A DNA stretch of 49,741 nucleotides from an uncultured Pseudomonadales bacterium (GCA_964648275.1 CAZYOB010000005.1:1-49741), one strand, 5' to 3'; counted from the stretch's first letter, positions 3,294-35,429 are shown. The notes: generated by a model from the letters alone, not told the origin. Made by a program: numbers and translations.

Positions 3294-3302
3294 ACTAGAT
3301 AA

Positions 3303-4076
3303 GTGAAGAACATATTATGGATTGGGCTAATCTTGTTGATGCTTGGAGTTTGGACTTGGCAACAGTTTCCGGACGGGAAATTGAGGCTCATCTTTTGCGA
3401 TGTCGGCCAGGGTGACGGTGCGGTGATTTCCTTGGGTTATTTCCAAGCGATGATAGATACGGGTGAGAGTGGAGAAAAGATACTTGACTGTTTGTCTGAT
3501 CATATGCCGTATTGGGATAAGAGACTGGAGGTCGTGTTTTTGTCGCATCCGGACAGTGACCATGCCGGGGCGTTACCAGAGATTGAGCGGAGTTATGAAG
3601 TGGGTCGGGTGATAAGAAGTGCCGGTCTTGGTGATATCGTCCGTATCAGAGATTTACAGTTTGAAGTATTAAGTAGGGGGAGTTTGGGTAGTCAAACCGG
3701 TGATGATGGTTGTGAAACCACTAATGAGTGTTCAATGGTAATCAGGGTAGTCTATAAAAAATTTTCGGGGTTGTTCACCGGTGATATGGGAGAAAAGGAA
3801 GAATTGGCACTCTTGGGTCGGGGAGTGATTAAAGAATCGGATGTTTTAAAAGTTGCCCATCATGGGTCAAAATTCAGTTCAACAATTGAGTTTTTGGAGA
3901 CACTACGCCCAGAATTGGCCGTGATATCAGTGGGAGCGAAAAACAGGTATGGTCATCCGACAAGTGATACTTTGAGTCGGTTGGATGCAGTCGGGGCAAA
4001 GGTGATGAGAACCGACGAAAGGGGAACTATAGAGGTAGTGACAGACGGTGAACAGTCCTGGGTGGTAAAAAAATGA
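3303..4076 (+). CDS. MBL-fold hydrolase corresponding to the ComEC C-terminal domain (separate ORF)
   Basis: GTG start. One N-terminal TM helix. Motifs SHPDSDHAGAL, LKVAHHGSKFSS and AVISVGAKNRYGHPTSDTL are typical of the ComEC beta-lactamase-like domain. Same reading frame as 2157..3293. Confidence 0.8.
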   Translation: MKNILWIGLILLMLGVWTWQQFPDGKLRLIFCDVGQGDGAVISLGYFQAMIDTGESGEKILDCLSDHMPYWDKRLEVVFLSHPDSDHAGALPEIERSYEVGRVIRSAGLGDIVRIRDLQFEVLSRGSLGSQTGDDGCETTNECSMVIRVVYKKFSGLFTGDMGEKEELALLGRGVIKESDVLKVAHHGSKFSSTIEFLETLRPELAVISVGAKNRYGHPTSDTLSRLDAVGAKVMRTDERGTIEVVTDGEQSWVVKK

Positions 4077-10744: not shown

Positions 10745-11413
10745 ATGGAATTGGAAGTAAGTGAATGGCCGAAGGGATTGGAGAAAGTAAAACCGGGTAT
10801 AAAAAACATTTTTTATAAAGGGAATATCGGATTATTGAGTGACGGGCGTCCGAGGTTGGCGGTGGTGGGGAGTAGAAAAATGACCGACTATGGAAGGGAA
10901 ATAATCGACCGCTGGGTACCATCACTGGTCAGGCGTGGAGTGGTGATAGTGTCCGGTTTTATGTATGGCGTCGATCAGGAAGCTCATCGTGTTTGTATAG
11001 AAGAAGGCGGAAGCACTATTGCGGTCTTGGGATGGGGTATAGACAGAAAAGTGGCGAGACTGGACGAGAATCTGTATCAGAAAATATTAGAAAGTGATGG
11101 ATTGATAGTGTCAGAATACCCGGGAGTGACACCTGCCAGAATTTGGACTTTTCCTCAAAGAGATAGGATCGTAGTGGGTATTTCCGACGCAGTTTGGGTA
11201 GTTGAGGGTGCGCTTAAATCGGGAAGTATGATCACTGCTAATCAAGCGACAGCACAGGGGAAGCCACTATTGGCTTTGCCGGGAAGGGTGGGAGTGAATG
11301 TGGCCGAGGGTGTGAATGGACTGATAAAGATGGGAAGAGCAGAAATGGTAACGGGGGTTGGAGATCTCTTCGAGGTGTTGGGTTTGGTTCCGGGTCAGTT
11401 GAGTTTGGGTTGA
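10745..11413 (+). CDS. dprA: DNA-processing protein DprA (Smf), short form
   Basis: Rossmann-like DprA core: AVVGSRKMTDYGREII...VSGFMYGVDQEAHR...TIAVLGWGID...FPQRDRIVVGIS...VVEGALKSGSMITA. Confidence 0.85.
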   Translation: MELEVSEWPKGLEKVKPGIKNIFYKGNIGLLSDGRPRLAVVGSRKMTDYGREIIDRWVPSLVRRGVVIVSGFMYGVDQEAHRVCIEEGGSTIAVLGWGIDRKVARLDENLYQKILESDGLIVSEYPGVTPARIWTFPQRDRIVVGISDAVWVVEGALKSGSMITANQATAQGKPLLALPGRVGVNVAEGVNGLIKMGRAEMVTGVGDLFEVLGLVPGQLSLG

Positions 11414-15812: not shown

Positions 15813-15942
15813 AGGTACTATTATATAGTCTTTTTGATAATATTACCTTTATTGGGCATATACATAATTGTATAAATGAGGTCTAATGTAATACTTTGAT
15901 ATATTAGGATTGGGTTTGGCGTTAGTGTACAATTACACCAAA

Positions 15943-16950
15943 ATGGGATTCAGTTTTTCAAAAAAAGTAGCTATAGATTTAGGAACCGCCAACAGCTTGG
16001 TTTATGTGGTGGGTCAGGGAATCGTATTGGAAGAACCGACTGTGGTGGCTGTATCGGTAAATGACGGAAAAGTGCTGGCAGTCGGGAAAGAAGCACAAAG
16101 TATGTTGGGAAGAACCCCCGGTAATATCAAAGCCAGTAAACCAATGAGAGACGGGGTAATCGCCGATTATGCGGTGACCGAGGCAATGTTGAAGTATTTT
16201 CTAAGAAGAGTAGGTGGTCAGGGAATTTTCAAGCCGGAGGTAATGATCTGTGTTCCCGCAGGAGTAACTCAAGTGGAGAGAAGGGCCGTATTGGGGGCGA
16301 CAATCGCAGCCGGAGCCAGGAATGCCTATCTTATCGAAGAACCCCTGGCAGCGGCAATAGGGGCAGGGGTGCCGATCGCCGAAGCAAGTGGAAATATGAT
16401 ATTGGACATGGGTGGCGGTGCCAGTGAAGCAGCGGTAATATCATTAGGTGGTGTCGTGACATTTAAAAGCGTCAGGGTGGCAGGGAATAGGATTGACGAG
16501 GCTATATCTAAATATGTCAGAAGAAAACATAACTTGGTCATTGGAGAAACGACGGCTGAGGGGGTGAAGGTAAAGATAGGGTCGGCAATGGCTTCAAGTA
16601 AAGAAGAGAGAATGGAGGTCACGGGACGTGACAGTATCACCGGTTTGCCTAGACAGATAGAGATAAGCTCTTACGAGGTTTTTGAGGCCATTAGAGAGCC
16701 TCTGGGAAAAATCATCGCTATGTTAAAGACGGTGATGGAAGAAGTTCCTCCAGAATTAAGCTCTGACATTATTGATAAAGGTATAGTAATGACTGGGGGG
16801 ACAGCACTGTTGAGGGGATTTGATAGACTGATCACTCAAGAAACAGGTGTTCCAGCTTTTGTAGCAGAGGATCCTCATAAGTGTGTAATAAAAGGAATTG
16901 GGATAGCGATAGAGAACTTGGATGTCTACAGTAGAAGTTTAGGTAAGTAA
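15943..16950 (+). CDS. mreB: rod-shape/actin-like protein MreB
   Basis: MGFSFSKKVAIDLGTANSLVYV..., DMGGGASEAAVISLGG, and the C-terminal GIVMTGGTALLRGFDRLI. I prefer the ATG at 15943 over the track TTG at 15910. Confidence 0.9.
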   Translation: MGFSFSKKVAIDLGTANSLVYVVGQGIVLEEPTVVAVSVNDGKVLAVGKEAQSMLGRTPGNIKASKPMRDGVIADYAVTEAMLKYFLRRVGGQGIFKPEVMICVPAGVTQVERRAVLGATIAAGARNAYLIEEPLAAAIGAGVPIAEASGNMILDMGGGASEAAVISLGGVVTFKSVRVAGNRIDEAISKYVRRKHNLVIGETTAEGVKVKIGSAMASSKEERMEVTGRDSITGLPRQIEISSYEVFEAIREPLGKIIAMLKTVMEEVPPELSSDIIDKGIVMTGGTALLRGFDRLITQETGVPAFVAEDPHKCVIKGIGIAIENLDVYSRSLGK

Positions 16951-23823: not shown

Positions 23824-24351
23824 TTAAGCGGATAATTTGTTCCTGAGGGCATCCAGACCGTAGACGAGATTTTGGATGGGAGCACTGAGCTGTCTGACCA
23901 GAGCTTGGGCGGGAGCTTGGAGTTGAGCCAAGAGACTGGAGAGGAGCTGCTCGCGGCTGGGGAGCTTGGATAGAGAGGTGATCTCGACCGGGGTGATGGC
24001 TTTGCCATCCATGATGCCGGATTTGATCTTAAGCTTGTCATGATCATCGGCAAAGTTCATGACGACCTTGGCACCGGCAACTGCGTCTTTTTTGGAGAAG
24101 AGGACTGCTGTAGGGCCATTGAGGAAGCTGTCAAGGGTATCGACGAGGTCGGCATTGGTCTCTTTAAGAGCTAGGCGGAGGAGGTTGTTTTTGGTGACTA
24201 CAAAGACGGCATCGTTCTTGGAAGCTTCATTCCTGAGCTGGTTTTGTTCCGAAACGGAGAGACCGGCGTATTCGGTAAGGATGACGGCTTTAGAGTCGGA
24301 GAGACCTTTGATGAGTTCGGCCAGTTGATGTATATTTTTTTGGTTTGGCAT
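23824..24351 (-). CDS. rplJ: 50S ribosomal protein L10
   Basis: MPNQKNIHQLAELIKGLSDSKAVILTEYAGLSVSEQNQLRNE... It lies directly upstream of rplL. Confidence 0.9.
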   Translation of the reverse strand: MPNQKNIHQLAELIKGLSDSKAVILTEYAGLSVSEQNQLRNEASKNDAVFVVTKNNLLRLALKETNADLVDTLDSFLNGPTAVLFSKKDAVAGAKVVMNFADDHDKLKIKSGIMDGKAITPVEITSLSKLPSREQLLSSLLAQLQAPAQALVRQLSAPIQNLVYGLDALRNKLSA

Positions 24352-24470
24352 CTGGATTTGATTAGTTTATATTTTTTACCCAATAAAAAGGCGCGTATCC
24401 AAGACGTGCCTATTAGGGTGTTCTACTCGGGGCTTAGTGATCGCCCGAGGTCTTGGAACAAGTGTTATTC
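24352..24470 (-). promoter_or_regulatory. rplJ 5' leader (possible L10-type autoregulatory leader)
   Basis: Untranslated region of more than 100 nt with a hairpin CTCGGG / CCCGAG at 24426..24449. The assignment rests on position only. Confidence 0.25.
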
Positions 24471-24510
24471 TAACACGGGAGGGGGTAATTGCAAGTCTTA
24501 GGATTGCGAA

Positions 24511-24540
24511 TTGACATAATAAGTGCAAATGGAATAAAAT
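24511..24540 (+). promoter_or_regulatory. sigma70-type promoter candidate
   Basis: TTGACA, an 18-nt spacer, then TAAAAT. It lies about 85 nt upstream of the ATG at 24624. Confidence 0.5.
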
Positions 24541-24623
24541 ATGGGGTGTGAACAGGCAATGCCTGTTGAACCTTAAAAAGCTCTAAGTTTTAATCTAAAA
24601 TTTTCCTTTGAGTGGAGGTTACT

Positions 24624-26129
24624 ATGAAGAATGGTGATAAGTTTGGAGAATGGGCCGCTGGCCAGGGTGTTTCGGATCAACACAAGACGCTTCTTTTGAA
24701 TGCGCTTGGGAAGATCCCCCCGGATCAAGCCGATGCTTTAATTGATGAGATTTCAAGTCAGAATTTGCCGATGAAGGATGCACTGCCCAGAATCATGCGG
24801 GCAGCTCTGCCCAGTGCTGCAAAAGTCCAACAGGCCCCTCAGTTCGAACCCGCTCCTCACGAGAAACCAGTGATTGCTAAGGTTGAAGAGAAAAAGAAGG
24901 GGTTTCCCGGTTTGAGCGTGTTTTCCGGCGGTGGTAAAAAGCCTGCCCCTGCTTCCAAGCAGGGCGGTGGTAAAAAGCCCGGCGGAAAAATGATCTTGAT
25001 TGGTGTAGCTGTTGTGGTCATCTTGGCCCTCGCGTTCGTGATGGTGCCCAAACTTATGGGTGGTGGCGAGGTTGAGGGTAACGAAGCCTATCCGGCGATG
25101 GAAGGTTACTTTGTTCAAGGTGAACCAGCACTGCCTACAGAGATAGTTCCCAGTGCGGTGCCGGATCAAGGATTGACTGGATTGTCCGCTGAGGATAAGA
25201 GCGAATGGGCCGCCAGTGTGCTTAAGAGCACTCTGGGCGATCCGGCGCTCAATCGTCCGGTCAGTTGGTCAGCTGCTTTTTCGAATTTCCCCTGGCTTTG
25301 GTTGGTTTATATCCTGGGAGCCCCCGTCCTACTCTTCATGGTTTATCGTGATCGGAGTCAGGCACAGGAACTATCAGATATCAAGCTTGCCAATAGGGGA
25401 TTCTGGTTCATGTTCCTGGCTACCGTACTGAGTGAATTCATCGCGAAGATCTTCATCGCTCAAGGAATGAACCCCACGTCATCTGTTTTCACTGTGTTGG
25501 CGATCGGCGCTATTGGTGCCGTCATCTTCCAGTGGTCGGCGGTGACGTCAGGGAAACGTGATTACAGCGTTTTGGCGGTTGGCGTATTCTCCACCGGCTT
25601 GTTGATCAAGTGGTGGTTGTCCGCTAATGCCACGCTGGCTGCTGTGGCGATGGTCTTGATGGTGGTTGGAATGTTCCTTCTGCTGATCGAGATTCGCAGG
25701 AATGCGAACGAAGCCGAGTCTGATACGGTGATGGTGAAGTCCTTGTTGGGGACTCTGTTGATGGCTATAGTTTTTGTAGCTGTCTTCGGATTTATCTTTA
25801 TCACTATCGATCGCGCTGTCGGTAATATGCCCATTCCTGTTGACATCGAGGGACAAGCAAGGATAGCTACACAGGTAGCCCTTTATACCAAAGGCCAAAT
25901 GCCGATTTCGCTCGTACTGGGCGCATTCGCCGCTTTAGGTGCAGGTCTGGTCTGGGGTGCTATAGCACTTCGACCGGCCAACTCCAAGAGCACCGGCAAA
26001 ATGGTCGATGGCAACATCCTTGGTCTGATCTCACTAGACGCCGATATGATGGCGCTTTTTGTGATGATCCTCTGGTTCCTCATGCCGTGGATGAGCTTGC
26101 TTCCAACGTTGCTGCGTCTATTTATTTAA
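24624..26129 (+). CDS. polytopic (~9 TM) membrane protein with a Lys/Gly/Pro-rich cytoplasmic N-terminus, unknown function
   Basis: SD GGAGG 5 nt before the ATG at 24624. First TM helix MILIGVAVVVILALAFVMVP, an ~85-aa loop, then 8 more hydrophobic helices. No motif recognised. Confidence 0.65.
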   Translation: MKNGDKFGEWAAGQGVSDQHKTLLLNALGKIPPDQADALIDEISSQNLPMKDALPRIMRAALPSAAKVQQAPQFEPAPHEKPVIAKVEEKKKGFPGLSVFSGGGKKPAPASKQGGGKKPGGKMILIGVAVVVILALAFVMVPKLMGGGEVEGNEAYPAMEGYFVQGEPALPTEIVPSAVPDQGLTGLSAEDKSEWAASVLKSTLGDPALNRPVSWSAAFSNFPWLWLVYILGAPVLLFMVYRDRSQAQELSDIKLANRGFWFMFLATVLSEFIAKIFIAQGMNPTSSVFTVLAIGAIGAVIFQWSAVTSGKRDYSVLAVGVFSTGLLIKWWLSANATLAAVAMVLMVVGMFLLLIEIRRNANEAESDTVMVKSLLGTLLMAIVFVAVFGFIFITIDRAVGNMPIPVDIEGQARIATQVALYTKGQMPISLVLGAFAALGAGLVWGAIALRPANSKSTGKMVDGNILGLISLDADMMALFVMILWFLMPWMSLLPTLLRLFI

Positions 26130-26147
26130 ATGCTTAGAACTACTTTA

Positions 26148-26180
26148 CCGTAGTGGAGTAACCCTCCACTACGGGATTTG
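26148..26180 (+). terminator. rho-independent terminator (11-bp stem)
   Basis: Stem CCGTAGTGGAG / CTCCACTACGG. The U-tract is weak (GATTTGTT). Confidence 0.6.
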
Positions 26181-26186
26181 TTCAAG

Positions 26187-26233
26187 ATAATTGCTCAGAT
26201 GAGTAGTTGTTTTGATCAAGTCTGAGCAATTAT
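26187..26233. promoter_or_regulatory. perfect 13-bp inverted repeat with a 21-nt spacer (operator or 5'-UTR hairpin)
   Basis: ATAATTGCTCAGA (26187..26199) and TCTGAGCAATTAT (26221..26233), 58 nt upstream of the ATG at 26291. Confidence 0.5.
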
Positions 26234-26290
26234 GCTCTGCTTGTGTAGAACATTAAAATCCATTCTTATTGCACATACAGGAGGTTTGTT

Positions 26291-27511
26291 ATGGCTAAAA
26301 ATAATCATGCTCAAACTGGCGAGATGATCGTGCGGGATATGTCCAAAAGGAACCCCGCGCTCTTTAGAGAGGCTAATAGAGTCGCCGCGGCTGTTGCGCG
26401 TCAACTGAACCTAGCCACCGAGAAGTTTTCTGAAGCGGGTCGAATTGGTGGGACAGTGAATGCTGTCGCACCCGGCTTGCTGAAGAATCCGGGAGCAGTG
26501 CTTCCTCAGATCACCACGCTCAATGCAGCAGACACGGCCGTTAGCCGGATGATGATTCTCAATACTCTGCTGTCTCCCGAGTTTGACGGTGTGCTGGAGG
26601 ACTTTCAGTTTCGTCTGGCAAATGCCAGTGCTCAGCAACAAGTTGATTTACTGCGATCCTTTTCAGCGGTCGACTGGGCGGCTTTGTCCCGTCCTGCTTT
26701 TGAAAAGAATGCGCCGGCTTTGGCGAAGCTTCAGGGTTTTCTTCATCACCATTCCCAGATGCGCGGAGTCGAGCATGCTGGTTTGCAGGATTTGTTGGTG
26801 TTGACCCGGATTCCGCAGTTTACTCAAATGCTGGTTTTGGCTTCAGGCTATGGAGAGATCATGCTCATGGCATGGGAAATCTTCCAGCAAAATCGAGCCA
26901 GTTTGCTTAAGGACAACGAGGAAAATAAGACCCTCGTGTCACGACTAGATGGTATTCTGTCTGAGTTTACCGAAGCAGAAATGCGCCGGTTGCAGAGTGC
27001 GGTCAACGTGGTTGACCTGACCGAGCAACTTGACCACGCACTACAGGTAGCAGAGATGCTTGCCGGTATGGAAAACCGGACTGCCGACATGCTATCCCGT
27101 ATCGATATCGATAAGATGCTGGTGAAGGAAATGGATACCCACACCGAAGCCAGTGTCGCGTCACAATTGAAACTCTTGGAAGAGTTTGTTACGAGCATGC
27201 ATCTGCTGACCAAGAACAAGACCCGTTTGGCCAAGATCAATAAAGCCATCGGTTCCCTTGATCTTTACATCAAGTGCTACATCGTATTCGAGCTCAATCT
27301 GGCCATGCTTCAGGTTTATATTCTCTCCGGGTCAGCGGCTATCCAGACTGTTCTGGGTAACCAGCTGCGGCTGGTAGGCGAGCGAACTGCCATGACGTTC
27401 TTCGAAGAGCAAATCGCGCCTTTCCAGAAGTTGACAGGGAACTTTGAGAACAATTTCCTTCTGCCTCAGCTAATTGATGATGACGGCGATATCAGCCTGG
27501 TGCAGAAGTAA
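26291..27511 (+). CDS. hypothetical soluble, predominantly alpha-helical protein (406 aa)
   Basis: SD AGGAGG. Terminator downstream. Leu/Ala/Gln/Glu-rich composition. No motif recognised. Confidence 0.65.
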   Translation: MAKNNHAQTGEMIVRDMSKRNPALFREANRVAAAVARQLNLATEKFSEAGRIGGTVNAVAPGLLKNPGAVLPQITTLNAADTAVSRMMILNTLLSPEFDGVLEDFQFRLANASAQQQVDLLRSFSAVDWAALSRPAFEKNAPALAKLQGFLHHHSQMRGVEHAGLQDLLVLTRIPQFTQMLVLASGYGEIMLMAWEIFQQNRASLLKDNEENKTLVSRLDGILSEFTEAEMRRLQSAVNVVDLTEQLDHALQVAEMLAGMENRTADMLSRIDIDKMLVKEMDTHTEASVASQLKLLEEFVTSMHLLTKNKTRLAKINKAIGSLDLYIKCYIVFELNLAMLQVYILSGSAAIQTVLGNQLRLVGERTAMTFFEEQIAPFQKLTGNFENNFLLPQLIDDDGDISLVQK

Positions 27512-27529
27512 GAGTGACGATTTAACCAT

Positions 27530-27557
27530 GCCGGTTGCCAAGCGCAGCCGGCTTTTT
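27530..27557 (+). terminator. rho-independent terminator
   Basis: Stem GCCGGTTGC / GCAGCCGGC (one G-U pair), followed by T5. Confidence 0.7.
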
Positions 27558-27558
27558 A

Positions 27559-27587
27559 TTGACAAAAAGAGGCTAATGTGATATAAT
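27559..27587 (+). promoter_or_regulatory. consensus sigma70 promoter
   Basis: TTGACA (27559..27564), a 17-nt spacer, and TGaTATAAT (-10 at 27582..27587). Both hexamers match consensus perfectly. Confidence 0.7.
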
Positions 27588-27638
27588 ATGGGATAGTTTG
27601 AGGCACTTTAACCCATTCCTTTTTGTCGGAGGGATCTG

Positions 27639-28220
27639 ATGGAAACTTCCTATAAAGTGATCTTTGGGACACATAAAGGTAATTTAATCCAGAGACTATT
27701 GAAGTTTTGGATTATGCCCAGAATGCCCCGCTTGGAGATCCTTGTCTACACTCTGCTGGGTGTTGGTATCTTCAAAAGAGTTTTGATGAATACCGTTGGA
27801 AGGATTGACAAGTATTCATCTCACCAGACCAACTACAATATTGGTAAGCTCAATTTAAAGAATTTACTTACCTTTGCCACCAGTCAGACAATGTTCAATG
27901 AAGGTTGGCACCTGTTCGCATTTCTTGCCACCAATCTTCCCTATCTTATTACCTGGTGGAACGATGGTCGTCCTCTGAGCGCCACCACCGTTTTCTTTCT
28001 GGTCCTGTCGGTCATAACCATTTACTGCGTGATGCTGCAGAGGTATAACAGGGCTAGAATCTGCCTAGTAGTCGAAAGATTGGTCTCAAAAGGCCATACA
28101 GTCGACAGCAGTTACAGAAATTGGTTGGCATTGGATCTGCCCGATCCAGTTGATGAGAATGAGCGTTTGATGAAAGAGTACGGGCTGACACATATATACG
28201 TAGGTCGTTCCCCGCAGTGA
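27639..28220 (+). CDS. membrane protein resembling glycosyl-4,4'-diaponeurosporenoate acyltransferase (CrtO-like family)
   Basis: NEGWHLFAFLATNLPYLITWW...VITIYCVMLQRYNRARI parallels S. aureus CrtO ELIHWISILP...IIIVQRYNRPRL (recalled from memory). 3-4 TM helices. Confidence 0.5.
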   Translation: METSYKVIFGTHKGNLIQRLLKFWIMPRMPRLEILVYTLLGVGIFKRVLMNTVGRIDKYSSHQTNYNIGKLNLKNLLTFATSQTMFNEGWHLFAFLATNLPYLITWWNDGRPLSATTVFFLVLSVITIYCVMLQRYNRARICLVVERLVSKGHTVDSSYRNWLALDLPDPVDENERLMKEYGLTHIYVGRSPQ

Positions 28221-28235
28221 TGCGGGGATTTTTTT
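28210..28235 (+). terminator. rho-independent terminator
   Basis: Stem CCCCGCA / TGCGGGG with the TGA stop in the loop, followed by ATTTTTTT. Confidence 0.75.
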
Positions 28236-28240
28236 GTCAC

Positions 28241-28266
28241 AAAAATCCCCGGCTGGCGGCCGGGGA
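28241..28266 (-). terminator. rho-independent terminator of the minus-strand operon
   Basis: Stem TCCCCGGC / GCCGGGGA. T5 follows on the minus strand. Confidence 0.7.
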
Positions 28267-28286
28267 GGAGAAAATTCTTTGAAAGT

Positions 28287-28385
28287 TTAGAAGCCTGTAT
28301 TGCCGATTACGTAGAATGCGACAACCAGGAAACTGCAGGAAAGCAGGATTAGCCCGATAAGGAGAGGGATGATGATTTTTTTCAC
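28287..28385 (-). CDS. 32-aa hydrophobic peptide (single TM), last gene of the operon
   Basis: Not in the ORF track. GGAGG, a 5-nt spacer, then GTG at 28385. Peptide VKKIIIPLLIGLILLSCSFLVVAFYVIGNTGF. It starts 12 nt after the stop of 28397..29569, and the terminator follows. Confidence 0.45.
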   Translation of the reverse strand: MKKIIIPLLIGLILLSCSFLVVAFYVIGNTGF

Positions 28386-28396
28386 AGTGACCTCCT

Positions 28397-29569
28397 TTAG
28401 GGGATTGAGAACAGCTTCTGAACAAGGGTGGCGTAGTTGACACCGGATTCAAGGCTGTCGGGGTCGATGGTGATGGCCATGTTAGCGAGTGCGTCAGATC
28501 CAATCCCAGTGGCTGCGAAAGTGTAGCTGCAGTATTGCTGAGGCAGAACCTTGGTGGTCATATCATCGGCGTAGACATAATCGCACGGTGATCCCGGTTT
28601 GGCGGGAACTACTACAGTCAGACTTTCCAGCCCGGCGTAGTTATGATCAACACAGGTTGCGTCCTGAGCAGGACAACGAAATCCCGCAACCAGTTGCGCC
28701 GTATCCATGAGGGAGTTGTAGACGTGTTGCTCACCAGGGGTGGTGAGGCTGTCTACAAAGGTCTGATAGAGTTGGTCCGAGTAGATCGAACTTCGGCTGC
28801 CATCTGGCATTAAGGGGGCAAAGCTATCAGCGAGAGCCAGGTCAGGAGCGTCAGCGGTGAGCTCATTAGCCTGCTCTCGGAGATTGTCCCCGAAGAAGAT
28901 CTGTTTGAGGTCGATGACCAGATTCCAGCCACCCTTAAGATCTTTGTAGAAATCGTAGCGCTGATCGAACCTGGTACCCGGGCTATTGAGACCAATCTCC
29001 TTGATGGTGATTGTCACTTTGGCCAGGGCGAGCTCCTGGAAATAGTCATTTCCGGAGGCGTCGACCGCAGGGATTTGAACATGCTGACCCTCCTCTACCT
29101 TTACCTCAAAATCTTCCGGATTGACTAAGATTTGCCAGTCAGTCCAGGTGAGGCTAATGCGGCAGAAGGTATCACCCATGATTGTATAGAGGCCTAAGAT
29201 GTCGCTTTGAACCTGAACACAAACCCAGCCGGCTCCCGGAGCTCCAAGTTCACTGCTGATGAGCAGGTTTCTGGTCTCCGTGTAAGCTTTTGGGCGCATA
29301 GCAGCGATGAAAACCTGGGCGTCGGCAGGAGTCCACTCCACATAAGGGGTGGGCTTGGCCAGCACGACGGCTGTGGCGTTCTGAGCTGAGCTATGGCCGG
29401 GTGTAGGTGTGTACCGAGCAAGAGCCGTGGTGTTAACTGTCGGCGCAGGGCCGGATGGAAGGTGGGGCTGATTCTTGAGCTGAAGGTAAGAGAGTGCAAA
29501 AATTACTATTACTGCGAGCGATCCTAGCAGAATCAGAATACCAATTGTCTTTTTAAAAAAATTAGGCAT
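28397..29569 (-). CDS. bitopic membrane protein with a 350-aa Cys-containing ectodomain, unknown function
   Basis: 390-aa ORF with an N-terminal TM helix (TIGILILLGSLAVIVIFALSYL), 14 nt downstream of the preceding gene. Confidence 0.65.
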   Translation of the reverse strand: MPNFFKKTIGILILLGSLAVIVIFALSYLQLKNQPHLPSGPAPTVNTTALARYTPTPGHSSAQNATAVVLAKPTPYVEWTPADAQVFIAAMRPKAYTETRNLLISSELGAPGAGWVCVQVQSDILGLYTIMGDTFCRISLTWTDWQILVNPEDFEVKVEEGQHVQIPAVDASGNDYFQELALAKVTITIKEIGLNSPGTRFDQRYDFYKDLKGGWNLVIDLKQIFFGDNLREQANELTADAPDLALADSFAPLMPDGSRSSIYSDQLYQTFVDSLTTPGEQHVYNSLMDTAQLVAGFRCPAQDATCVDHNYAGLESLTVVVPAKPGSPCDYVYADDMTTKVLPQQYCSYTFAATGIGSDALANMAITIDPDSLESGVNYATLVQKLFSIP

Positions 29570-29583
29570 TTTATGCCTCCTTT

Positions 29584-30594
29584 TTACTTACAAACGAAGT
29601 AGATGTCATACTTTGTTCCCGTACCAACAGTCATTTTCATGGCACCGGAGTTGTCTATCTGAGCAAGTGAAATGGTAAGACTAGTACCGGTGCTGCAGGA
29701 TTCCGGAAGGGGTGAGCTGATCGCATTGTAAACAACGTAGTCCTCAACACCCTCGGAAACCTGGTAGTATAGTGCCCATTTGATTCGGTCCTGAGGAGTC
29801 GTGCTTTTGTTCTCACCGGACACAGTTGTGATATTGTGCTCGGTCATAACCAGAGCAAGCTCTTCAAGGGAAAATCCTCTTTCTTTCTCTGGCCAGGGAA
29901 CGGCGACTACCTGAGGGATGGACGTGGCTACCGGTGTCGGAGTGACTTTGGGAGTTGGTTCAACCGGGACCTCAGTTGGAGCTTGTACCTCTACGACCTG
30001 AGTGGTCGCGGGGTCAGCTACTGTTGGCTTAGGAGGGTCCTGGACCTGAGAAGATCTCAGATCCAGGATCCAGGTGGTCGTGCTTTGGGTCAGACGTTCC
30101 GAAATTACATCTACCGGTAGGCTTTTGTCATCGCTTGTGTTGGATATATGTTGGGCAAAGGCTTGGTAGTCCCGCTCAACAATTTTTTTCCATTCATCGC
30201 GATACCCTTCCGAAATGTTGTAACACTTACCAACGAATACCGGCGAGACAGTGATCTTATCTTCTTCACCCGGTTTGGTCGATGGTTTGATGACGATCAT
30301 TCCATCGCAAGTAACAATAGGAGCGGATGGTTCCGGAATAGCATTTGAAACTACTCCGGCTACACCGCTCGCCTTTTGCTGAATGAAGCCGACGATTTCA
30401 GTCTGATTGCTGTAGCCGAAATAGCCACCAACGAGAAGAATGATAACCAGAAGCAGGGCGTAGAAGGTTTGGTTGATAAACTTGTCCTGCCTGATCTTCT
30501 TCTGTTGCTTTTTAATTTCCCTTAATCTTGCGAGTTGTGATTCTGCTCTGTGGAGATTCTGCTCCATAGTAGAAAGACCATTATTATCGGACAT
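29584..30594 (-). CDS. bitopic membrane protein: coiled N-terminus, one TM helix, and two ectodomains joined by a Pro/Thr/Val linker; unknown function
   Basis: I chose the ATG at 30594 with GGAGG 6 nt upstream. The track start at 30927 would overlap the SLT gene by 320 nt. TM helix FYALLLVIILLVGGYFGY. Confidence 0.65.
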   Translation of the reverse strand: MSDNNGLSTMEQNLHRAESQLARLREIKKQQKKIRQDKFINQTFYALLLVIILLVGGYFGYSNQTEIVGFIQQKASGVAGVVSNAIPEPSAPIVTCDGMIVIKPSTKPGEEDKITVSPVFVGKCYNISEGYRDEWKKIVERDYQAFAQHISNTSDDKSLPVDVISERLTQSTTTWILDLRSSQVQDPPKPTVADPATTQVVEVQAPTEVPVEPTPKVTPTPVATSIPQVVAVPWPEKERGFSLEELALVMTEHNITTVSGENKSTTPQDRIKWALYYQVSEGVEDYVVYNAISSPLPESCSTGTSLTISLAQIDNSGAMKMTVGTGTKYDIYFVCK

Positions 30595-30604
30595 TGCACA
30601 CCTC

Positions 30605-32161
30605 CTAACGGTGATTTTCGTAGATGGCCATGACTTTGTCGACGTATGAATAGCCGATATCTGATGGCCCGTAGTGCATAAGACCGTCACGCTGTGAACC
30701 CCAGTAGTCGATGAGCCCGCGGAGCATTTCGGTTGCATACATGATGTTGAACTCCGGATCTTTGAGCTCTTCGATTGAAGGTCTGTTAGCGAAACATGGG
30801 CCGTTTTTGCATTGGAAACCGGCAGAAATGCCATCTCGTGGCATAACCTGCAGAAGTCCGACAGCTCCGGCCTTAGACATGATGACCGGGTCACCGCCTG
30901 ATTCTTGAACCATGATGGCGGCGACAAATCTCGGCTCCAGGTCGTTTAGTACAGCGTATTTCTCTATGTACTCACACCAGCGCCTGATCTCTTCAGGATA
31001 TGAGGGTGGTAGAGAACATTCTCTCGGTACCGCTGAGACGGTCATCTGGACCGATCCCTGACTGGTAACGGAAGTAGTTTCTAAGCTGGTCACGAATCCG
31101 ACGCCACCTTCGTTGCTCGTATAGGTGACGAATGAGTTGGCCTCCCTTGGGGGAGTCAGACGAGTGATCGAGGATGCCTTAACTTTTTCGAGACCGACAA
31201 AGAAGAACACACCGACAATGACGAGAGCGATGACGAAGGGGAGTGTTGAGCTCCTGAATTCATCCGAGTAGATGACACCGACCATAAAAACGATGAGGAG
31301 AGCTGCGGCGAGGATGATCGCAATGTTTCTGAAGGGGAGTATCTGGACGATGATCTTTTCGAGCAGGCTGGTCTTGACGACCGGAGCCACATCTGGCAGA
31401 TCAGCATCGGTGACAAATCCCTCCATAGGAGTATTAAGGCTTTCCGGAGACTCGGTGCTTATAGCAGTCCAAGCTTGAGCTGATTGAGCGGGAGCAGAAC
31501 CTTCCACCCGACTGGGGTGGATCCACCAATAACCACTAACAGCCACAGGTGAGGTGACGTCTTCAAAGCTGAAGACGTTGGACCAGAAACCCAAGGTGCT
31601 ATGGTTATGGGGTGGAATGGTGCCGTTCTTCGCAGTAAGAGTACAACTGCCTTCGAATCCGGAACAGCCAGGCTTGCCAACAACCTCGTCGGGCCCAATT
31701 TCTTGGCCGACTTGATAGACATTGACCGGGTTGTAGGAAAGATGGCCCATAAATTGACGCCAGCCCTGACAAGGGCCCTGACCGTCAATAATGATGCTGT
31801 TTCCGCCACCGGCTCTATCGTACCCAACCCAGGACACCACGCCACCATTTTTGAAGGCGACGGTAGTATCAACCAGGTAATCCACGGCCGGCCACTGCTT
31901 TGCATTCCAGCGGTGGAGGCCGAGATAGGTATTGTCCCAGGTGATGTTGCTGTTGCCAGTGCCACCTTCGATGAGACGAATCACATCCATGGTGGGGCGG
32001 CGATCAGCGGCCGGGGGTTGAAATTCACAAGCTGTGGGGTTCTCAGATATCTGTGAACCTTGGGCCGAAACAGGTATGGGAATGGTTACCGATAAGAACA
32101 GCGATAGGACCACGCCCAACAAAAGCAGTAAAGAGATGCTGCGGTACTTTGACCGGGGCAT
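30605..32161 (-). CDS. bifunctional peptidoglycan hydrolase: M23/LytM-like peptidase domain, 2 TM helices, and SLT (GH23) lytic transglycosylase domain
   Basis: Signal peptide. AVDYLVD...GGGNSIIIDG...FMGHLS...GKPGCSG...PPHNH parallels the lysostaphin/LytM motifs (HxxxD, MHLS, PHLH). The C-terminal VAAIMVQESGGDPVIMSKAGAVGLLQVMP is the SLT E-S...GLMQ motif. Confidence 0.8.
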   Translation of the reverse strand: MPRSKYRSISLLLLLGVVLSLFLSVTIPIPVSAQGSQISENPTACEFQPPAADRRPTMDVIRLIEGGTGNSNITWDNTYLGLHRWNAKQWPAVDYLVDTTVAFKNGGVVSWVGYDRAGGGNSIIIDGQGPCQGWRQFMGHLSYNPVNVYQVGQEIGPDEVVGKPGCSGFEGSCTLTAKNGTIPPHNHSTLGFWSNVFSFEDVTSPVAVSGYWWIHPSRVEGSAPAQSAQAWTAISTESPESLNTPMEGFVTDADLPDVAPVVKTSLLEKIIVQILPFRNIAIILAAALLIVFMVGVIYSDEFRSSTLPFVIALVIVGVFFFVGLEKVKASSITRLTPPREANSFVTYTSNEGGVGFVTSLETTSVTSQGSVQMTVSAVPRECSLPPSYPEEIRRWCEYIEKYAVLNDLEPRFVAAIMVQESGGDPVIMSKAGAVGLLQVMPRDGISAGFQCKNGPCFANRPSIEELKDPEFNIMYATEMLRGLIDYWGSQRDGLMHYGPSDIGYSYVDKVMAIYENHR

Positions 32162-32238
32162 GGTAGCCTCCTTGTAAACTTTCTTGAATTTTCAAGGTGC
32201 CCTAGGTACGAGGGACCTGAAGAACTAGGTATGTCTAT

Positions 32239-32267
32239 ATTTTATCTCATATTATGTAAAGCCGCAA
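32239..32267 (-). promoter_or_regulatory. weak sigma70-type promoter candidate for the hydrolase operon
   Basis: On the minus strand: TTGCGG, a 17-nt spacer, then TAAAAT. It lies about 75 nt upstream of the ATG at 32161. Confidence 0.3.
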
Positions 32268-32278
32268 TTATTTATCAT

Positions 32279-32304
32279 AAAAAAGCACCTCCTATAGGAG
32301 TGCT
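32279..32304 (-). terminator. terminator/attenuator-like hairpin after a mini-ORF
   Basis: On the minus strand: AGCACTCC-TATA-GGAGGTGCT (one bulge) followed by T6. The 3' arm contains an SD-like GGAGGTG. Confidence 0.45.
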
Positions 32305-32314
32305 AGTTAGAATA

Positions 32315-32362
32315 TTATGGTTTGGATGCGTAGATACCGAAGACAATGTGATCCGTGTTCAT
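32315..32362 (-). CDS. 15-codon mini-ORF (MNTDHIVFGIYASKP) with a strong SD; possible leader peptide
   Basis: GGAGGTG (32369..32375), a 6-nt spacer, then ATG at 32362. The stop lies 10 nt before the hairpin at 32279..32304. Not in the ORF track. Confidence 0.3.
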   Translation of the reverse strand: MNTDHIVFGIYASKP

Positions 32363-32415
32363 GTAAATCACCTCCAAGATAAGGTGCAAGTTGCGAGCGT
32401 TGTAGGTTAATAAGA

Positions 32416-32442
32416 CAAAGATCCGCCTAAAGCGGATCTTTG
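32416..32442 (-). terminator. 11-bp hairpin downstream of rplA (probable terminator)
   Basis: Stem CAAAGATCCGC / GCGGATCTTTG. On the minus strand it is followed by TCTTATT (modest U-tract). Confidence 0.5.
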
Positions 32443-32468
32443 AAAAAAAGGGTAAATAATTTCTCCTT

Positions 32469-33338
32469 TTATATGGAACTAAGATTGAGCCTGACTGAAG
32501 GAGTGTGAGTGCAAGAGAGGAAGGCGGACTTAATCCTTGTAGAACCGATAGCTCTTAGAGTCTCGTTTACATTGTCAATGAGATCCTGTTCGTTCTGGGT
32601 GATGGGTCCAAGCGCAAGGTGGATGATGGGGGACTTGGATTCAGTCTTGTAAGGGAGTGTGCCTCCGGCAGCCAGATCTTTAGCACGTTTCTCAGGGTTA
32701 TCAGTGATGGTGCCATTTCTAGGGTTGGGCATTATGCCTTTGGGGCCTAGGACCTTGGCGAAACGGGCGAGTTTAGGCATGTCTGCGGGTGTAGCAAGAA
32801 GCATATCAAAGTCCAGAGATCCGGAATTGATCTTAGCCTCTACTTCAGGACCGAAGATGGCGATACGGAGTTCCTTACCGGTGGAGTGTGGAAGTTTGAT
32901 CTCACCTCTGACTCCAGCCTCGCGGGTATTGATGGTCAGTTCGACGGTTTTGAGTTTGGAGGATTTGGCAAGGCGGCTCAAGATTTCAACTGCCTCTTTG
33001 ATTTCATGAGTATTTTCGCGATCGAGTCCTTTGGCCATCATCGAATATTTTTTCGAGCGGGTGCGGGGCTTGATTACTTTTTTGACCTTTTCTGTTTGCG
33101 CAACTTCTTTTTCCTCGACAGTGGCTTTTGCCAGAACTTCCTTGACCTGTTCGATATTGTCGGTGTTGTAGATGGTCCTGATGGAGTTCACGTCCTCTTC
33201 TTTGATGCCTTCTATGGCCATGAGTTCACCATCGGTCTTGGCGATGACTTGTTCAGGTTGAAGACGGGCGGTGCGAAGAGCTTCTGCCACATGGACGGGT
33301 AAGTCGTTGTAAAGATTTTCCCAAATTATTTTTGTCAT
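32469..33338 (-). CDS. rplA: 50S ribosomal protein L1 with an ~88-aa N-terminal extension
   Basis: The L1 core runs from ~residue 90 (RSKKYSMMAKGLD...EAVEIL...VELTINT...LGPKGIMPNPRNGTIT...). The ORF starts 5 nt after the rplK stop. Its 289 aa compare with about 230 in a typical L1. Confidence 0.85.
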   Translation of the reverse strand: MTKIIWENLYNDLPVHVAEALRTARLQPEQVIAKTDGELMAIEGIKEEDVNSIRTIYNTDNIEQVKEVLAKATVEEKEVAQTEKVKKVIKPRTRSKKYSMMAKGLDRENTHEIKEAVEILSRLAKSSKLKTVELTINTREAGVRGEIKLPHSTGKELRIAIFGPEVEAKINSGSLDFDMLLATPADMPKLARFAKVLGPKGIMPNPRNGTITDNPEKRAKDLAAGGTLPYKTESKSPIIHLALGPITQNEQDLIDNVNETLRAIGSTRIKSAFLSCTHTPSVRLNLSSI

Positions 33339-33772: not shown

Positions 33773-33925
33773 GTTTTATTTTGTTTTTTGTAATGGCTGA
33801 TCGAAAAGTGGAAGTAAACCGGAGATGGTTTGATGTAGAAATGAGTAGATCGTACCGGTTCGCTGTTCCTTTTCGGAAAGCTGCCTCACGTAAAAGCGAG
33901 GTAGGAGTATTTTAACACAGAGAGA

Positions 33926-34240
33926 TCATTCAGTGGTAGTGGGGAGAGTATTGGGGGCACATTCACCTGTGATGTAGACAAACATTCCGGCGAGACCGGC
34001 TTCACATGAGTTGATGTAGGTTATGTTATCCCGGCCACAGACAGGTTCGTAAATCTCGGAACAGACTACCTCCGGACGTTGAAGGACGACAGGGGTGACA
34101 ACGGGGGCGGGTTGATCGGCCCGAGTGCGAATCTCACCCCCCCGGGTCTGGAAGATGACCAAGGCAGCCGCAAGGCCGAGTAAAACGATCAGAATTGGTA
34201 GGGCAAGCCAAAGTGACTCTTCCGCCGAAAAAGCCTTCAT
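33926..34240 (-). CDS. membrane-anchored Kazal-like protease-inhibitor domain protein
   Basis: TM helix LWLALPILIVLLGLAAALVIF, then CSEIYEPVCGRDNITYINSCEAGLAGMFVYITGEC. This fits the Kazal pattern (y.PVCG.D..TY.N.C.a......v..G.C) but has 4 rather than 6 Cys. Confidence 0.55.
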   Translation of the reverse strand: MKAFSAEESLWLALPILIVLLGLAAALVIFQTRGGEIRTRADQPAPVVTPVVLQRPEVVCSEIYEPVCGRDNITYINSCEAGLAGMFVYITGECAPNTLPTTTE

Positions 34241-34285
34241 TTGATTTCAGTATGCCAGAGGTTTAAGTAACAGTCAAGAAACCAT

Positions 34286-34311
34286 GAAAAACCCGCCTTT
34301 TTGAGGCGGGT
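34286..34311 (-). terminator. rho-independent terminator of 34394..35338
   Basis: Stem ACCCGCC / GGCGGGT. T5 follows on the minus strand. Confidence 0.7.
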
Positions 34312-34393
34312 AGTGGTGCCAATCCTGACTTTTGAGATTTAAGAAACACATATTGACCAGAAACTTGACATGTTTTCCAAAAGCAGCATTGAC

Positions 34394-35338
34394 TCAGTGC
34401 GAATATACGTAGACGGCCTGAGGGATCAATCTCTCGCTGTATCTAAGAACTTGTTCGGAACCACTGATACGGCAGGACAGCTGAGTGGATCCACCACCGT
34501 CCAACATCATGATGACTTCGGCACCCAGAGACTTCAGAGTAGATTCCATCTGACGTTGATTGGAAGAGGGAGAGACAAGAACCATCAGGGTAGATTCACC
34601 ATGTGTACCAACAAAAGTACGGCCGACGACACTCTTGGGCTTCTTATTTGCGAGCGCAGTAAGGCCGGTAATGATATCAACGGCGTCTGAGTTCTCGAAA
34701 CGGTTTTTATCCAAAGGTGTAATCCGCGTTCTGTCCGGCCAAACTTCCAACATAAGCTTTTCGCCTTTGTGGAACTTTGTTTCCCAACCGTAGGTAATGA
34801 TCTCGCCGTTAGCTTTGAGAGGGGCCGCCAAACCGGTGGGGTATTTAACCATTTTGAAGAACTGACCGTTAAAGGCGCAGGCAAAATTTTCGTTGCCACC
34901 CTGGCTGAGGTAGTCGCCGAGGGCTTTGCTTTTGAAGGCAGTATCGTTTCCATCCCAGATTCCGGGACCAAGAACGTCTCCGGTCGCATTATGAAGAGCT
35001 CTGATGCCTGCTTGATTAAGATCAATTACCAGGAGATAAGTAGCTTCTTGAGAGTAGATAGTGATACCTGGACTGGTAGCGTAGACCGAAAATCCCTGAG
35101 ATGCCGGGTCGACGTTGGGAAGACTGACCACAGAAGGTATCTCGACCGAAGCAGATGATTCTTCACTGATTGGAAGTATGGCTTGGATGATCTGTGGATC
35201 GAAGACATAGTTGTCTTCGTCCTCTAATTCCAAGGTTGTCACAGAAGAGACGAAGGAGTCGGATGAATTTGACGCCGGTGAGATCCAGGCGATGAACAAC
35301 ACTAAAAGGATTATCAATAAAATGACCAGCTTTTTCAC
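34394..35338 (-). CDS. secreted/anchored phosphodiester glycosidase (NAGPA/DUF2233-like) family protein
   Basis: N-terminal hydrophobic anchor. AFNGQFF...GLAAPLKANGE and the C-terminal MMLDGGGSTQL resemble the family's signature LDGGGS motif. Confidence 0.5.
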   Translation of the reverse strand: MKKLVILLIILLVLFIAWISPASNSSDSFVSSVTTLELEDEDNYVFDPQIIQAILPISEESSASVEIPSVVSLPNVDPASQGFSVYATSPGITIYSQEATYLLVIDLNQAGIRALHNATGDVLGPGIWDGNDTAFKSKALGDYLSQGGNENFACAFNGQFFKMVKYPTGLAAPLKANGEIITYGWETKFHKGEKLMLEVWPDRTRITPLDKNRFENSDAVDIITGLTALANKKPKSVVGRTFVGTHGESTLMVLVSPSSNQRQMESTLKSLGAEVIMMLDGGGSTQLSCRISGSEQVLRYSERLIPQAVYVYSH

Positions 35339-35429
35339 GGCGTCACCTCCTTATTTAATGTGCGAACGTATGAGCGTGATTTTACATCAGAAGAGCTCTA
35401 AGAACAACTTATAGCTTTTTGAGGAGAGA

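Follow-up and report, generated by a model that had tools for sequence, protein, structure and literature searches.

A ribosomal-protein cluster interrupted by an 8.1-kb insert

We analysed a stretch of 49,741 nucleotides (GCA_964648275.1, CAZYOB010000005.1:1-49741, deposited as an uncultured Pseudomonadales bacterium; hereafter the window) in which an 8,117-bp insert, encoding a predicted peptidoglycan hydrolase and six further proteins, fills exactly the gap between the ribosomal-protein genes rplJ and rplA (Table 1). The window retains the order and orientation of nusG, rplK, rplA, rplJ and rplL. Its minus strand reads secE-nusG (36044-35430), two genes for secreted proteins, rplK, rplA, the insert, rplJ and rplL. 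Compared with the canonical secE-nusG-rplKAJL cluster it is interrupted twice, by genes for NAGPA-like and Kazal-type proteins at the nusG-rplK junction and by the 8.1-kb module at the rplA-rplJ junction.

Seven genes are supported within the insert, three on the plus strand and four on the minus strand, and the two groups converge. The plus strand encodes a polytopic membrane protein (p501), a soluble protein (p406) and a CrtO-like acyltransferase, and the minus strand encodes the hydrolase of 518 amino acids (aa; p518), two bitopic proteins (p336 and p390) and a 32-aa micropeptide. A preliminary description of this DNA had counted eight open reading frames (ORFs), although it listed seven itself; the separation of rplA and rplJ by 8.1 kb, which it also reported, stands. 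The minus-strand genes are tightly coupled, as it had stated, with gaps of 10, 14 and 11 nt and a Shine-Dalgarno (SD) site beside or overlapping each preceding stop. No L10 leader or any other known RNA was found in the region with Rfam, and no paralogue of a module protein occurs within the window.

The region is present on nine contigs from separate ENA, NCBI and JGI assemblies, 99.2-99.8% identical and derived from Rifle-type groundwater samples (NCBI GCA_001001475.1 among them). Five of the nine (L001, L002, L003, L005 and L008; L numbers are our labels for contigs and lineages) span both junctions. Therefore the insert is not an assembly chimera, a possibility that the preliminary description had raised. 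Across the nine contigs, no module gene carries a frame-breaking insertion or deletion.

The rarity of the split was surveyed at 80 genome loci fetched by their L1 protein, 49 of which had a detectable rplJ downstream. The rplA-rplJ gap measures 6-350 bp in 47 of these 49 loci from other genomes, and the two exceptions (8,972 and 3,714 bp) both belong to the closest relatives of the present organism. Judged by the identity of NusG and L11, the closest named relative is a genome assigned to Woesebacteria, and we take it to belong to Microgenomatia. In the nearest named outgroup, a Woesebacteria genome, rplA and rplJ lie 341 bp apart. The split occurs in one small lineage of ultra-small groundwater Patescibacteria.

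A mobile genomic island was considered and rejected. Neither the insert nor its flanks hold an integrase or transposase gene, no tRNA lies at the insert borders, the GC content of the insert (0.46-0.54) is near that of the flanks (0.44-0.50), and the same position is occupied in about 14 lineages.

The module keeps one order in related lineages

Relatives were reached from homologues of p390 and the hydrolase by way of the contigs that carry them; scanning metagenomes with the p390 alignment returned only seven loci. The hydrolase gene lies directly downstream of rplA in about 14 further lineages (L010, L091, L092, L093, L097, L098, L102-L106 and L108-L110). Where the contig extends, it is followed in one order by p336-like and p390-like genes, usually the micropeptide, the convergent p406-like and p501-like genes, and rplJ. 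The p518 gene is translationally coupled to those of p336, p390 and the micropeptide, and this order is kept across the lineage. Identity of rplA among the module-bearing relatives falls to 59%. In the lineages compared by BLAST, identity to the window is 83-94% for L11, 47-72% for p390, 39-73% for the hydrolase, 30-45% for p336, 25-51% for p406 and 25-38% for p501, and in L105 all five module proteins are detected by profile only.

The module genes are thus co-conserved in one order in every relative whose contig reaches far enough, so the alternative that close relatives carry them scattered, which the preliminary description had entertained, fails. Together the results show that the insert is real, vertically inherited and lineage-specific, in line with the earlier claim of a real, lineage-specific insert.

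The edge content varies. The CrtO-like gene belongs to the module only optionally: it was detected in L091 and L102 but not in L010, L092, L093, L104, L105, L106 and L110. Furthermore, several lineages hold extra genes on the rplA side, and this expansion zone between rplA and the hydrolase gene (Table 1) encodes NAGPA-like, canonical M23, small SLT and VanW-like proteins together with unassigned secreted or bitopic ones.

A predicted membrane-tethered double hydrolase

Profile searches and structure prediction indicate that p518 is a double peptidoglycan hydrolase, in which an M23 (LytM) fold and an SLT lytic transglycosylase domain lie on either side of a two-helix membrane hairpin, behind a signal peptide. 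The SLT domain matches Pfam PF01464 (family 1) at 56.5 bits (cut-off 21.3, E 2.5e-15), its best solved-structure match in the PDB is EmtA (E 5e-15), and nine of nine orthologues have the Pfam SLT match. The catalytic residues E420-S421 are invariant (alignment A5). Sequence match and catalytic Glu-Ser motif clearly relate the domain to EmtA/MltE and Slt70. Those enzymes are lipoproteins or soluble periplasmic proteins, whereas in p518, a two-enzyme protein tethered to the membrane of a monoderm-type organism, the SLT domain occupies the C-terminal part. In PHROGs, p518 is matched by phage lysins, to the SLT domain only.

The isolated M23 domain scores below the Pfam cut-off (19.7 against 28.7 bits, E 9.8e-4), only two of nine orthologues give a Pfam M23 match at E<=1, and phmmer against the PDB returns M23 chains exclusively, but at E 0.2. 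In contrast, the predicted fold is clear. An AlphaFold2 model built from 23 sequences (predicted local distance difference test score, pLDDT, 86; predicted template modelling score 0.84) retrieves M23 peptidases as all of its top 17 PDB matches in Foldseek, with probability 0.99-1.00, the next match having E 0.7. These include lysostaphin, LytM, DipM, LytU, EnpA, Csd1/2 and LysTt72. Against lysostaphin, LytM and the LytM domain of DipM, the common fold is found at probability 1.00, E 8e-6 to 1e-3 and a target-normalised template modelling score of 0.5-0.59. The M23-hairpin-SLT hydrolase of the preliminary description thus holds for its architecture, its SLT domain and its hairpin, and for M23 at the level of the fold but not by the Pfam cut-off.

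In the 23 sequences D94, H140 (GHL), H185/H187 (HNH) and H83 are invariant, and p518 keeps the Asp, the central His and the HxH of M23 enzymes. Unlike in canonical M23 enzymes, the first zinc-binding His of HxxxD, four residues before the Asp, is Trp or Ile, and extra disulfide-forming Cys are present; the invariant H83 lies seven residues upstream of the canonical HxxxD His. The M23-domain profile also misses the adjacent canonical M23 genes of L092 and L108. Activity of the M23-like domain is plausible, no more, because its Asp and His residues are invariant yet the HxxxD His is replaced.

By topology, both catalytic domains face outside and are tethered to the membrane by the hairpin between them; the signal peptide, the hairpin and the conserved cysteines, which occur in the M23-like domain and in the p390 domain, lead to this placement. 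The M23-like domain would cut peptide cross-links and the SLT domain would cut glycan strands. The family of the N-terminal part comprises 23 clusters among 5.8 billion clustered proteins, nearly all of which also carry SLT. Single-nucleotide polymorphisms (SNPs) among the nine population contigs number 9 synonymous to 0 non-synonymous in p518, indicating purifying selection. In L010 the orthologue has 702 aa, with long Pro/Glu/Val/Ala-rich linkers flanking the membrane hairpin. Taken as a whole, p518 combines known enzymes in a new architecture, and its partners are orphans.

Partners encoded on the minus strand

Hydropathy supports the earlier description of p336 and p390 as bitopic proteins, and orients them with the N-terminus inside and the C-terminus outside. 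p336 begins with a basic cytoplasmic segment, crosses the membrane with one helix and has two small domains outside, with a Pro/Thr-rich linker between them. Its family holds five clusters among the 5.8 billion clustered proteins and varies in length: in L092 the first domain stands alone (201 aa), and in L106 an 80-aa bitopic protein takes its place. p390 has an N-terminal anchor and an outside domain of about 360 aa with four invariant Cys (alignment A1), and its family holds 11 clusters. The AlphaFold2 model of p390, from 11 sequences, is poor (pLDDT 60), and a Foldseek search with this weak model against the PDB and viral structures gave no match of any kind. Across the nine near-identical contigs the p390 gene carries 13 synonymous and 12 non-synonymous SNPs, which are small counts.

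The operon ends with the micropeptide, VKKIIIPLLIGLILLSCSFLVVAFYVIGNTGF, whose SD site (AAAGGAGG) overlaps the stop of the p390 gene. Homologues of 32-61 aa lie at the same place in L091, L093, L097, L102, L103, L104 and L105, and the hydrophobic 32-aa peptide noted earlier is upheld. The peptides have one helix and measure 32-35 aa, or 51-61 aa in two lineages. The micropeptide is absent in L010, L092 and L098.

Proteins encoded on the plus strand

p501 starts at an ATG behind a GGAGG site; the longest ORF, from a GTG at 24612, has 505 aa. A 126-residue cytoplasmic head with a Lys/Gly/Pro-rich stretch precedes eight hydrophobic segments above the hydropathy threshold, in agreement with the preliminary description for the head and below its count of about nine membrane segments; the membrane domain thus has at least eight helices. 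Orthologues occupy the same position in eight lineages. SNPs in p501 (20 synonymous to 3 non-synonymous) likewise indicate purifying selection.

The insert of L011, a relative without the hydrolase, also has a polytopic membrane protein gene adjoining and divergent from rplJ (543 aa; L011 11140-13781). The encoded protein has a similar N-terminal head, in which an acidic, low-complexity linker replaces the Lys/Gly/Pro-rich one. Its homology to the p501 family is unsupported, with no match to the family hidden Markov model and an hhalign probability of 1%. The only local hhalign alignment covers the signature motif of the p501 family (SG.R.Y).

p406 has no hydrophobic segment in hydropathy plots and a helix-favouring composition (52% A/E/L/M/Q/K/R, 7% G+P). 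The earlier description as an all-alpha soluble protein stands as to solubility, and its all-alpha part reflects composition only. An exhaustive phmmer search against 1.84 billion representatives gave 12 matches, and SNPs (8 synonymous to 1 non-synonymous) again indicate purifying selection. Residues 26-197 (26366-26881, plus strand) weakly match the unannotated phrog_4094 (E 1.2e-4, 22.7 bits); tblastn of p406 against 50,697 phage records found nothing comparable.

The CrtO-like protein matches PF18927 at 45.6 bits (cut-off 27.3, E 1.1e-11), and a 12/12 promoter precedes its gene. Both parts of the earlier proposal, a CrtO-like acyltransferase behind a consensus promoter, are therefore upheld.

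Four orphan families

Searches with p336, p390, p406 and p501 converge on one outcome. PDB profile searches with the four family alignments gave nothing below E 0.05 and obvious noise only, and member-by-member Pfam scans found no family matched by more than two members. NCBIfam and PADLOC had no match for the partner proteins, PHROGs had none beyond the weak match of p406, and tblastn of the four against 72,556 plasmids found no match. By these searches the four proteins are orphan families confined to the present lineage. The preliminary description had seen five proteins without a recognisable motif; orphan status is borne out for four proteins without a recognisable family.

Table 1. Features of the insert, its boundaries and the rplA-proximal stretches of related loci. 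Positions refer to the window except where a related locus is named.
Feature	Position	Strand	Evidence or remark
rplL	23792-23415	-	
rplJ (L10)	23824-24351	-	one insert boundary; Pfam Ribosomal_L10 E 4e-22; NCBIfam L10 E 1.5e-46
Promoter-like site before p501 gene	24511-24540	+	TTGACA-18-TAAAAT, 11/12; divergent from rplJ; consensus scan only
p501/p505, polytopic membrane protein	24624-26129	+	ORF, SD site, hydropathy; orphan family
GC-rich hairpin after p501 gene	26148-26174	+	11 bp; terminator-like, weak U tract; stem covaries in relatives
Conserved AU-rich RNA hairpin upstream of p406 gene	26175-26222	+	19 pairs; RNAalifold, 6 lineages
13-bp perfect inverted repeat	26187-26199 / 26221-26233		overlaps 5' arm of AU-rich hairpin
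p406, soluble cytoplasmic protein	26291-27511	+	ORF; orphan family
Terminator-like hairpin after p406 gene	27530-27552	+	
Perfect sigma-70 consensus promoter before CrtO-like gene	27559-27587	+	TTGACA-17-TATAAT with TG, 12/12
CrtO-family small membrane acyltransferase, 193 aa	27639-28220	+	Pfam PF18927
Back-to-back intrinsic terminators	28209-28266		close two convergent units
Single-helix membrane micropeptide, 32 aa	28287-28385	-	last gene of hydrolase operon
p390, bitopic protein	28397-29569	-	hydropathy; orphan family
p336, bitopic protein	29584-30594	-	hydropathy; orphan family, variable length
p518, predicted membrane-tethered double peptidoglycan hydrolase	30605-32161	-	SLT by profile, M23 by predicted fold
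p518 signal peptide	residues 1-33		
p518 M23/LytM-fold domain	residues 34-235; 31457-32062	-	
p518 two-helix membrane hairpin	residues 266-324; 31190-31366	-	
p518 SLT lytic transglycosylase domain	residues 397-490; 30692-30973	-	
Weak promoter-like match before hydrolase operon	32278-32251	-	9/12
Hairpin just after rplA	32416-32442	-	12 bp; weak T tail; inside 307-bp rplA-hydrolase spacer
rplA (L1, 289 aa)	32469-33338	-	other insert boundary; Pfam Ribosomal_L1 E 1.8e-23; TIGR01169 E 1.4e-34
rplK	33772-33344	-	
Expansion zone, L010	3234-4412		
Expansion zone, L091	6537-7415		
Expansion zone, L092	4520-5500		
Expansion zone, L102	6443-7315		
Expansion zone, L106	7301-9733		
Expansion zone, L108	6016-8548		
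Expansion zone, L109	1160-7268		

Transcription signals and a conserved RNA hairpin

The preliminary description had presented the insert as two convergent units with their own promoters and terminators. The convergence and the terminators hold, and relatives show the same hairpin and T run after the hydrolase operon; a firm promoter for that operon does not, its candidate being the weak 9/12 match. With a hairpin after rplA and no stronger promoter, the operon may or may not be reached by read-through from rplKA. The plus-strand unit may in fact be three transcription units, because a terminator-like hairpin follows each plus-strand gene.

The 13-bp perfect inverted repeat reported before p406 is confirmed. 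In the overlapping AU-rich hairpin 100% of alignment cells are paired across the six lineages, four pairs are changed on both sides and G.U pairs are invariant, compared with 34-57% pairing in slid controls. Pairing in six lineages, compensatory changes and invariant G.U pairs argue that the hairpin acts as plus-strand RNA. The whole non-coding block (26148-26233, plus strand) is better conserved than the flanking proteins, and it recurs at the same junction in L010, L091, L093, L102 and L104. The element could be an RNase III-type processing site or a regulator in the 5' untranslated region of the p406 gene.

The hairpin after rplA and a second, imperfect one followed by a T run enclose a 15-codon ORF (MNTDHIVFGIYASKP; 32314-32361, minus strand) that has a GGAGGTG site. 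It is possibly noise, and relatives carry other genes at its place.

A peptidoglycan-remodelling membrane complex as the best reading

We read the insert as a vertically inherited, lineage-specific cell-envelope module whose core is a peptidoglycan-remodelling membrane complex, and give this reading roughly even odds (probability about 0.5). It rests on the identity and outward placement of the enzyme, on the coupling of the hydrolase gene to its three neighbours, on their shared inheritance, on the absence of mobility signs and on the purifying selection seen in p518, p501 and p406. Furthermore, wall-active genes (NAGPA-like, canonical M23, extra SLT) also gather at the same spot in relatives. 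Of the novel peptidoglycan-spanning or remodelling complex proposed earlier, the remodelling complex is retained as the best reading and the type IV secretion frame is not.

In this complex, p336, p390 and the micropeptide would sit with p518 in the membrane and position or restrain the hydrolase. Restrained in this way, p518 would open the wall only locally, either for growth and the separation of cells or to let a surface structure pass. p501 and p406 would form a membrane and cytoplasmic control arm, by analogy with FtsEX-EnvC/PcsB or SpoIID/M/P, and the CrtO-like acyltransferase would be an optional add-on. Whether read this way or not, the p501/p406 pair is linked to the hydrolase unit by synteny alone, and may belong to the same machine. 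In FtsEX-EnvC/PcsB/CwlO and SpoIID-SpoIIM-SpoIIP, neighbouring genes encode the membrane partners, and possibly cytoplasmic ones, that hold and control the outside hydrolase domains, and SpoIIDMP pairs glycan-cutting and peptide-cutting activities with a polytopic scaffold. What we propose to be common is the working principle, an analogy and not membership: unlike those machines the module has no ABC ATPase, and no sequence or fold relation to their partners was found. No mechanism beyond the hydrolase is established.

Several points weigh against this reading. The activity of the M23-like domain, with its first zinc-binding His replaced, is unproven. The roles of the partners are deduced from position only, because no family or fold is known for any of them. 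A terminator-like hairpin follows every plus-strand gene, and promoter-like sites stand before two of these genes. The set is not invariant, because L011 (rplA 64% identical) carries another insert, of 3.7 kb, in which the hydrolase is missing, and L106 is without a p406-like gene and its 372-aa protein fails to match the p390 profile. Lastly, the 13:12 ratio in p390 suggests a surface protein under diversifying or relaxed selection rather than a housekeeping regulator.

Some of these points feed the main rival, in which rplA and rplJ flank a hot spot that tolerates insertions. The gap would then hold no single module but two or three gene sets without relation to each other: an operon for a wall hydrolase, a membrane protein together with a cytoplasmic protein of separate function, and a stray acyltransferase. 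The convergent units with separate promoter-like sites and a terminator-like hairpin for each plus-strand gene speak for such a site, as do the optional CrtO-like gene, the extra rplA-side genes in L010, L091, L092, L102, L106, L108 and L109, and the differing insert of L011. The nusG-rplK junction, moreover, is also broken by different genes in different relatives. Nevertheless, the hydrolase unit and the p501/p406-like pair keep order and orientation across lineages whose module proteins have fallen to 25-50% identity, and we consider unrelated gene sets unlikely, though they are the strongest competitor of a common module.

The same partners can be read as a host-directed weapon or contact device, in which the hydrolase and its fast-evolving partners act on the host wall at the contact site of an episymbiont. 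The outward partners are 30-72% identical where L11 is 83-94% identical, the non-synonymous share of p390 polymorphism is high, and the linkers of the 702-aa orthologue in L010 could span a wall. Peptidase and lysozyme genes are reported to be essential for the epibiotic growth of a cultured Saccharibacterium (PMC12102498). However, the enzyme is tethered to the membrane and not secreted, no adhesin or toxin-delivery gene lies nearby, and the word episymbiont is an assumption from membership in Patescibacteria. We hold a device of this kind to be improbable.

Comparison with type IV secretion systems

The preliminary description had matched the parts of the module to the non-ATPase half of conjugative type IV secretion systems (T4SS). 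Its remark that VirB4/VirD4 ATPases, a relaxase and a pilin are missing proved correct for the 49.7-kb window: Pfam found no VirB4/VirD4 ATPase among the window ORFs scanned, including all four ORFs of at least 600 aa, and at 14 related loci, precomputed Pfam annotations covering flanks of up to 10 kb on either side include no VirB4/VirD4, relaxase or pilin. The match of the parts list itself to a monoderm system of the MPF-FATA type is unsupported by Pfam, PDB, hhalign, plasmid or fold comparison. No member of the four orphan families matched the Pfam families VirB6/TrbL, VirB8, PrgI or VirB3. p501 had no Pfam TrbL/VirB6 match in seven of seven members and an hhalign probability of 0.3% against PrgH, with which, as with VirB6, it has only a generic multi-helix topology in common. 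Likewise, p336 and p390 had no Pfam, PDB or hhalign match to VirB8/PrgL, the hhalign templates being single sequences. The micropeptide has 32 aa, compared with 117 aa for PrgI on pCF10.

Alignment of five family alignments with single PrgD-PrgM sequences of pCF10 and two Tn916-like proteins by hhalign gave probabilities of 5% or less, bar one (SLT with the Orf14 lysozyme of Tn916, 23%). This test has little power, because the expected match of p518 with PrgK also failed to reach significance. In architecture p518 does resemble PrgK (pCF10), TraG (pIP501) and CwlT-type hydrolases, which are likewise membrane-anchored LytM/M23 and SLT enzymes encoded beside bitopic and polytopic proteins. Unlike them it has no CHAP/NlpC domain, and a two-helix hairpin lies between its catalytic domains; unlike theirs, its locus is chromosomal, vertically inherited and fixed at rplA-rplJ, with no VirB4/VirD4 or relaxase nearby.

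The rival built on this resemblance holds that the module is a diverged remnant or dispersed part of the Patescibacteria T4SS, with p518 as VirB1/PrgK, p501 as VirB6/PrgH, p336 or p390 as VirB8/PrgL, and VirB4 elsewhere. A LytM and SLT hydrolase beside bitopic and polytopic proteins recalls prgH-prgL of pCF10, and the closest named relative is a Woesebacteria genome. A 2025 survey adds that an M23 domain is often present in VirB1 homologues of Patescibacteria, most of which are not linked to virB4, and that VirB6 and VirB8 are scarce or undetectable in Microgenomatia, for which its authors blame extreme divergence (PMC12102498). The same survey, however, describes a monoderm-type T4SS centred on virB4, usually near dnaA and not at rplA-rplJ (PMC12102498). 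The Patescibacteria T4SS is widespread, whereas the module is confined to one narrow lineage. With the missing ATPases, the unmatched orphan families and the short micropeptide, this makes a T4SS origin very unlikely; we call the analogy unsupported, in that wording because several partner tests were weak (the single-sequence templates and the poor p390 model).

In a bolder form of the remodelling-complex reading, a single envelope-spanning machine not described before would be built from the micropeptide and all five conserved proteins, would be exclusive to the present Patescibacteria lineage and would be fixed inside its ribosomal-protein cluster. Its M23 and SLT head would be wired through the orphan membrane partners to p406, and the conserved RNA hairpin would be its dedicated regulator. 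The machine would build or maintain a conduit across the wall or a site of host contact, and it could replace the VirB1/6/8-type parts that go undetected by sequence searches in related classes. We regard this extension as a long shot.

Significance of the module

To our knowledge, the ways in which Patescibacteria build, open and cross the cell wall are largely uncharted. Orphan envelope genes are common among them, and the majority of their envelope proteins have no annotation. The insert offers a compact, well-delimited test case, with a predicted double hydrolase astride a membrane hairpin, a non-canonical M23 motif, four orphan families and a micropeptide, and with co-inheritance that has lasted while identity among the proteins fell to 25-50%. 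In addition, it shows that the near-universal adjacency of rplA and rplJ can be broken stably, and that the ribosomal cluster is a collecting point for envelope genes in this lineage. If the partners do control or guide the hydrolase, the module would be a new kind of wall-remodelling complex. If the two halves are unrelated, the finding shrinks to a lineage-specific hydrolase operon at an insertion hot spot.

Neighbouring genes and minor observations

Two genes lie in the second interruption of the cluster (33773-35429, minus strand), between nusG and rplK: one (35338-34394) encodes a NAGPA-like phosphodiester glycosidase, the other (34240-33926) a secreted protein resembling Kazal-type inhibitors. 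In relatives other genes occupy this junction, for example that of an M50 peptidase in L090/L091 and those of a ParE/HTH toxin-antitoxin pair in L105.

Residues 1-95 of the rplA product (33054-33338, minus strand) form a lineage-specific N-terminal extension of about 95 aa that has no Pfam match. L1 has 287-299 aa in most relatives, and the Woesebacteria L1 aligns solely from residue 67.

GC skew on the plus strand is positive over all 49.7 kb (about 0.0-0.38 per kb, with one bin slightly negative). The nusG-rplKAJL genes are encoded on the minus strand, so replication may meet these highly expressed genes head-on, unless the skew reflects something else.

The surrounding genes (1570-4076, 10745-11413, 15910-16950 and 45396-49535) include a DNA-uptake set (comEA, comEC, a metallo-beta-lactamase-fold gene and dprA) and mreB. 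Also in these surroundings are an ORF of 615 aa that matches no family and the gene of a 1,379-aa protein with collagen-like repeats.

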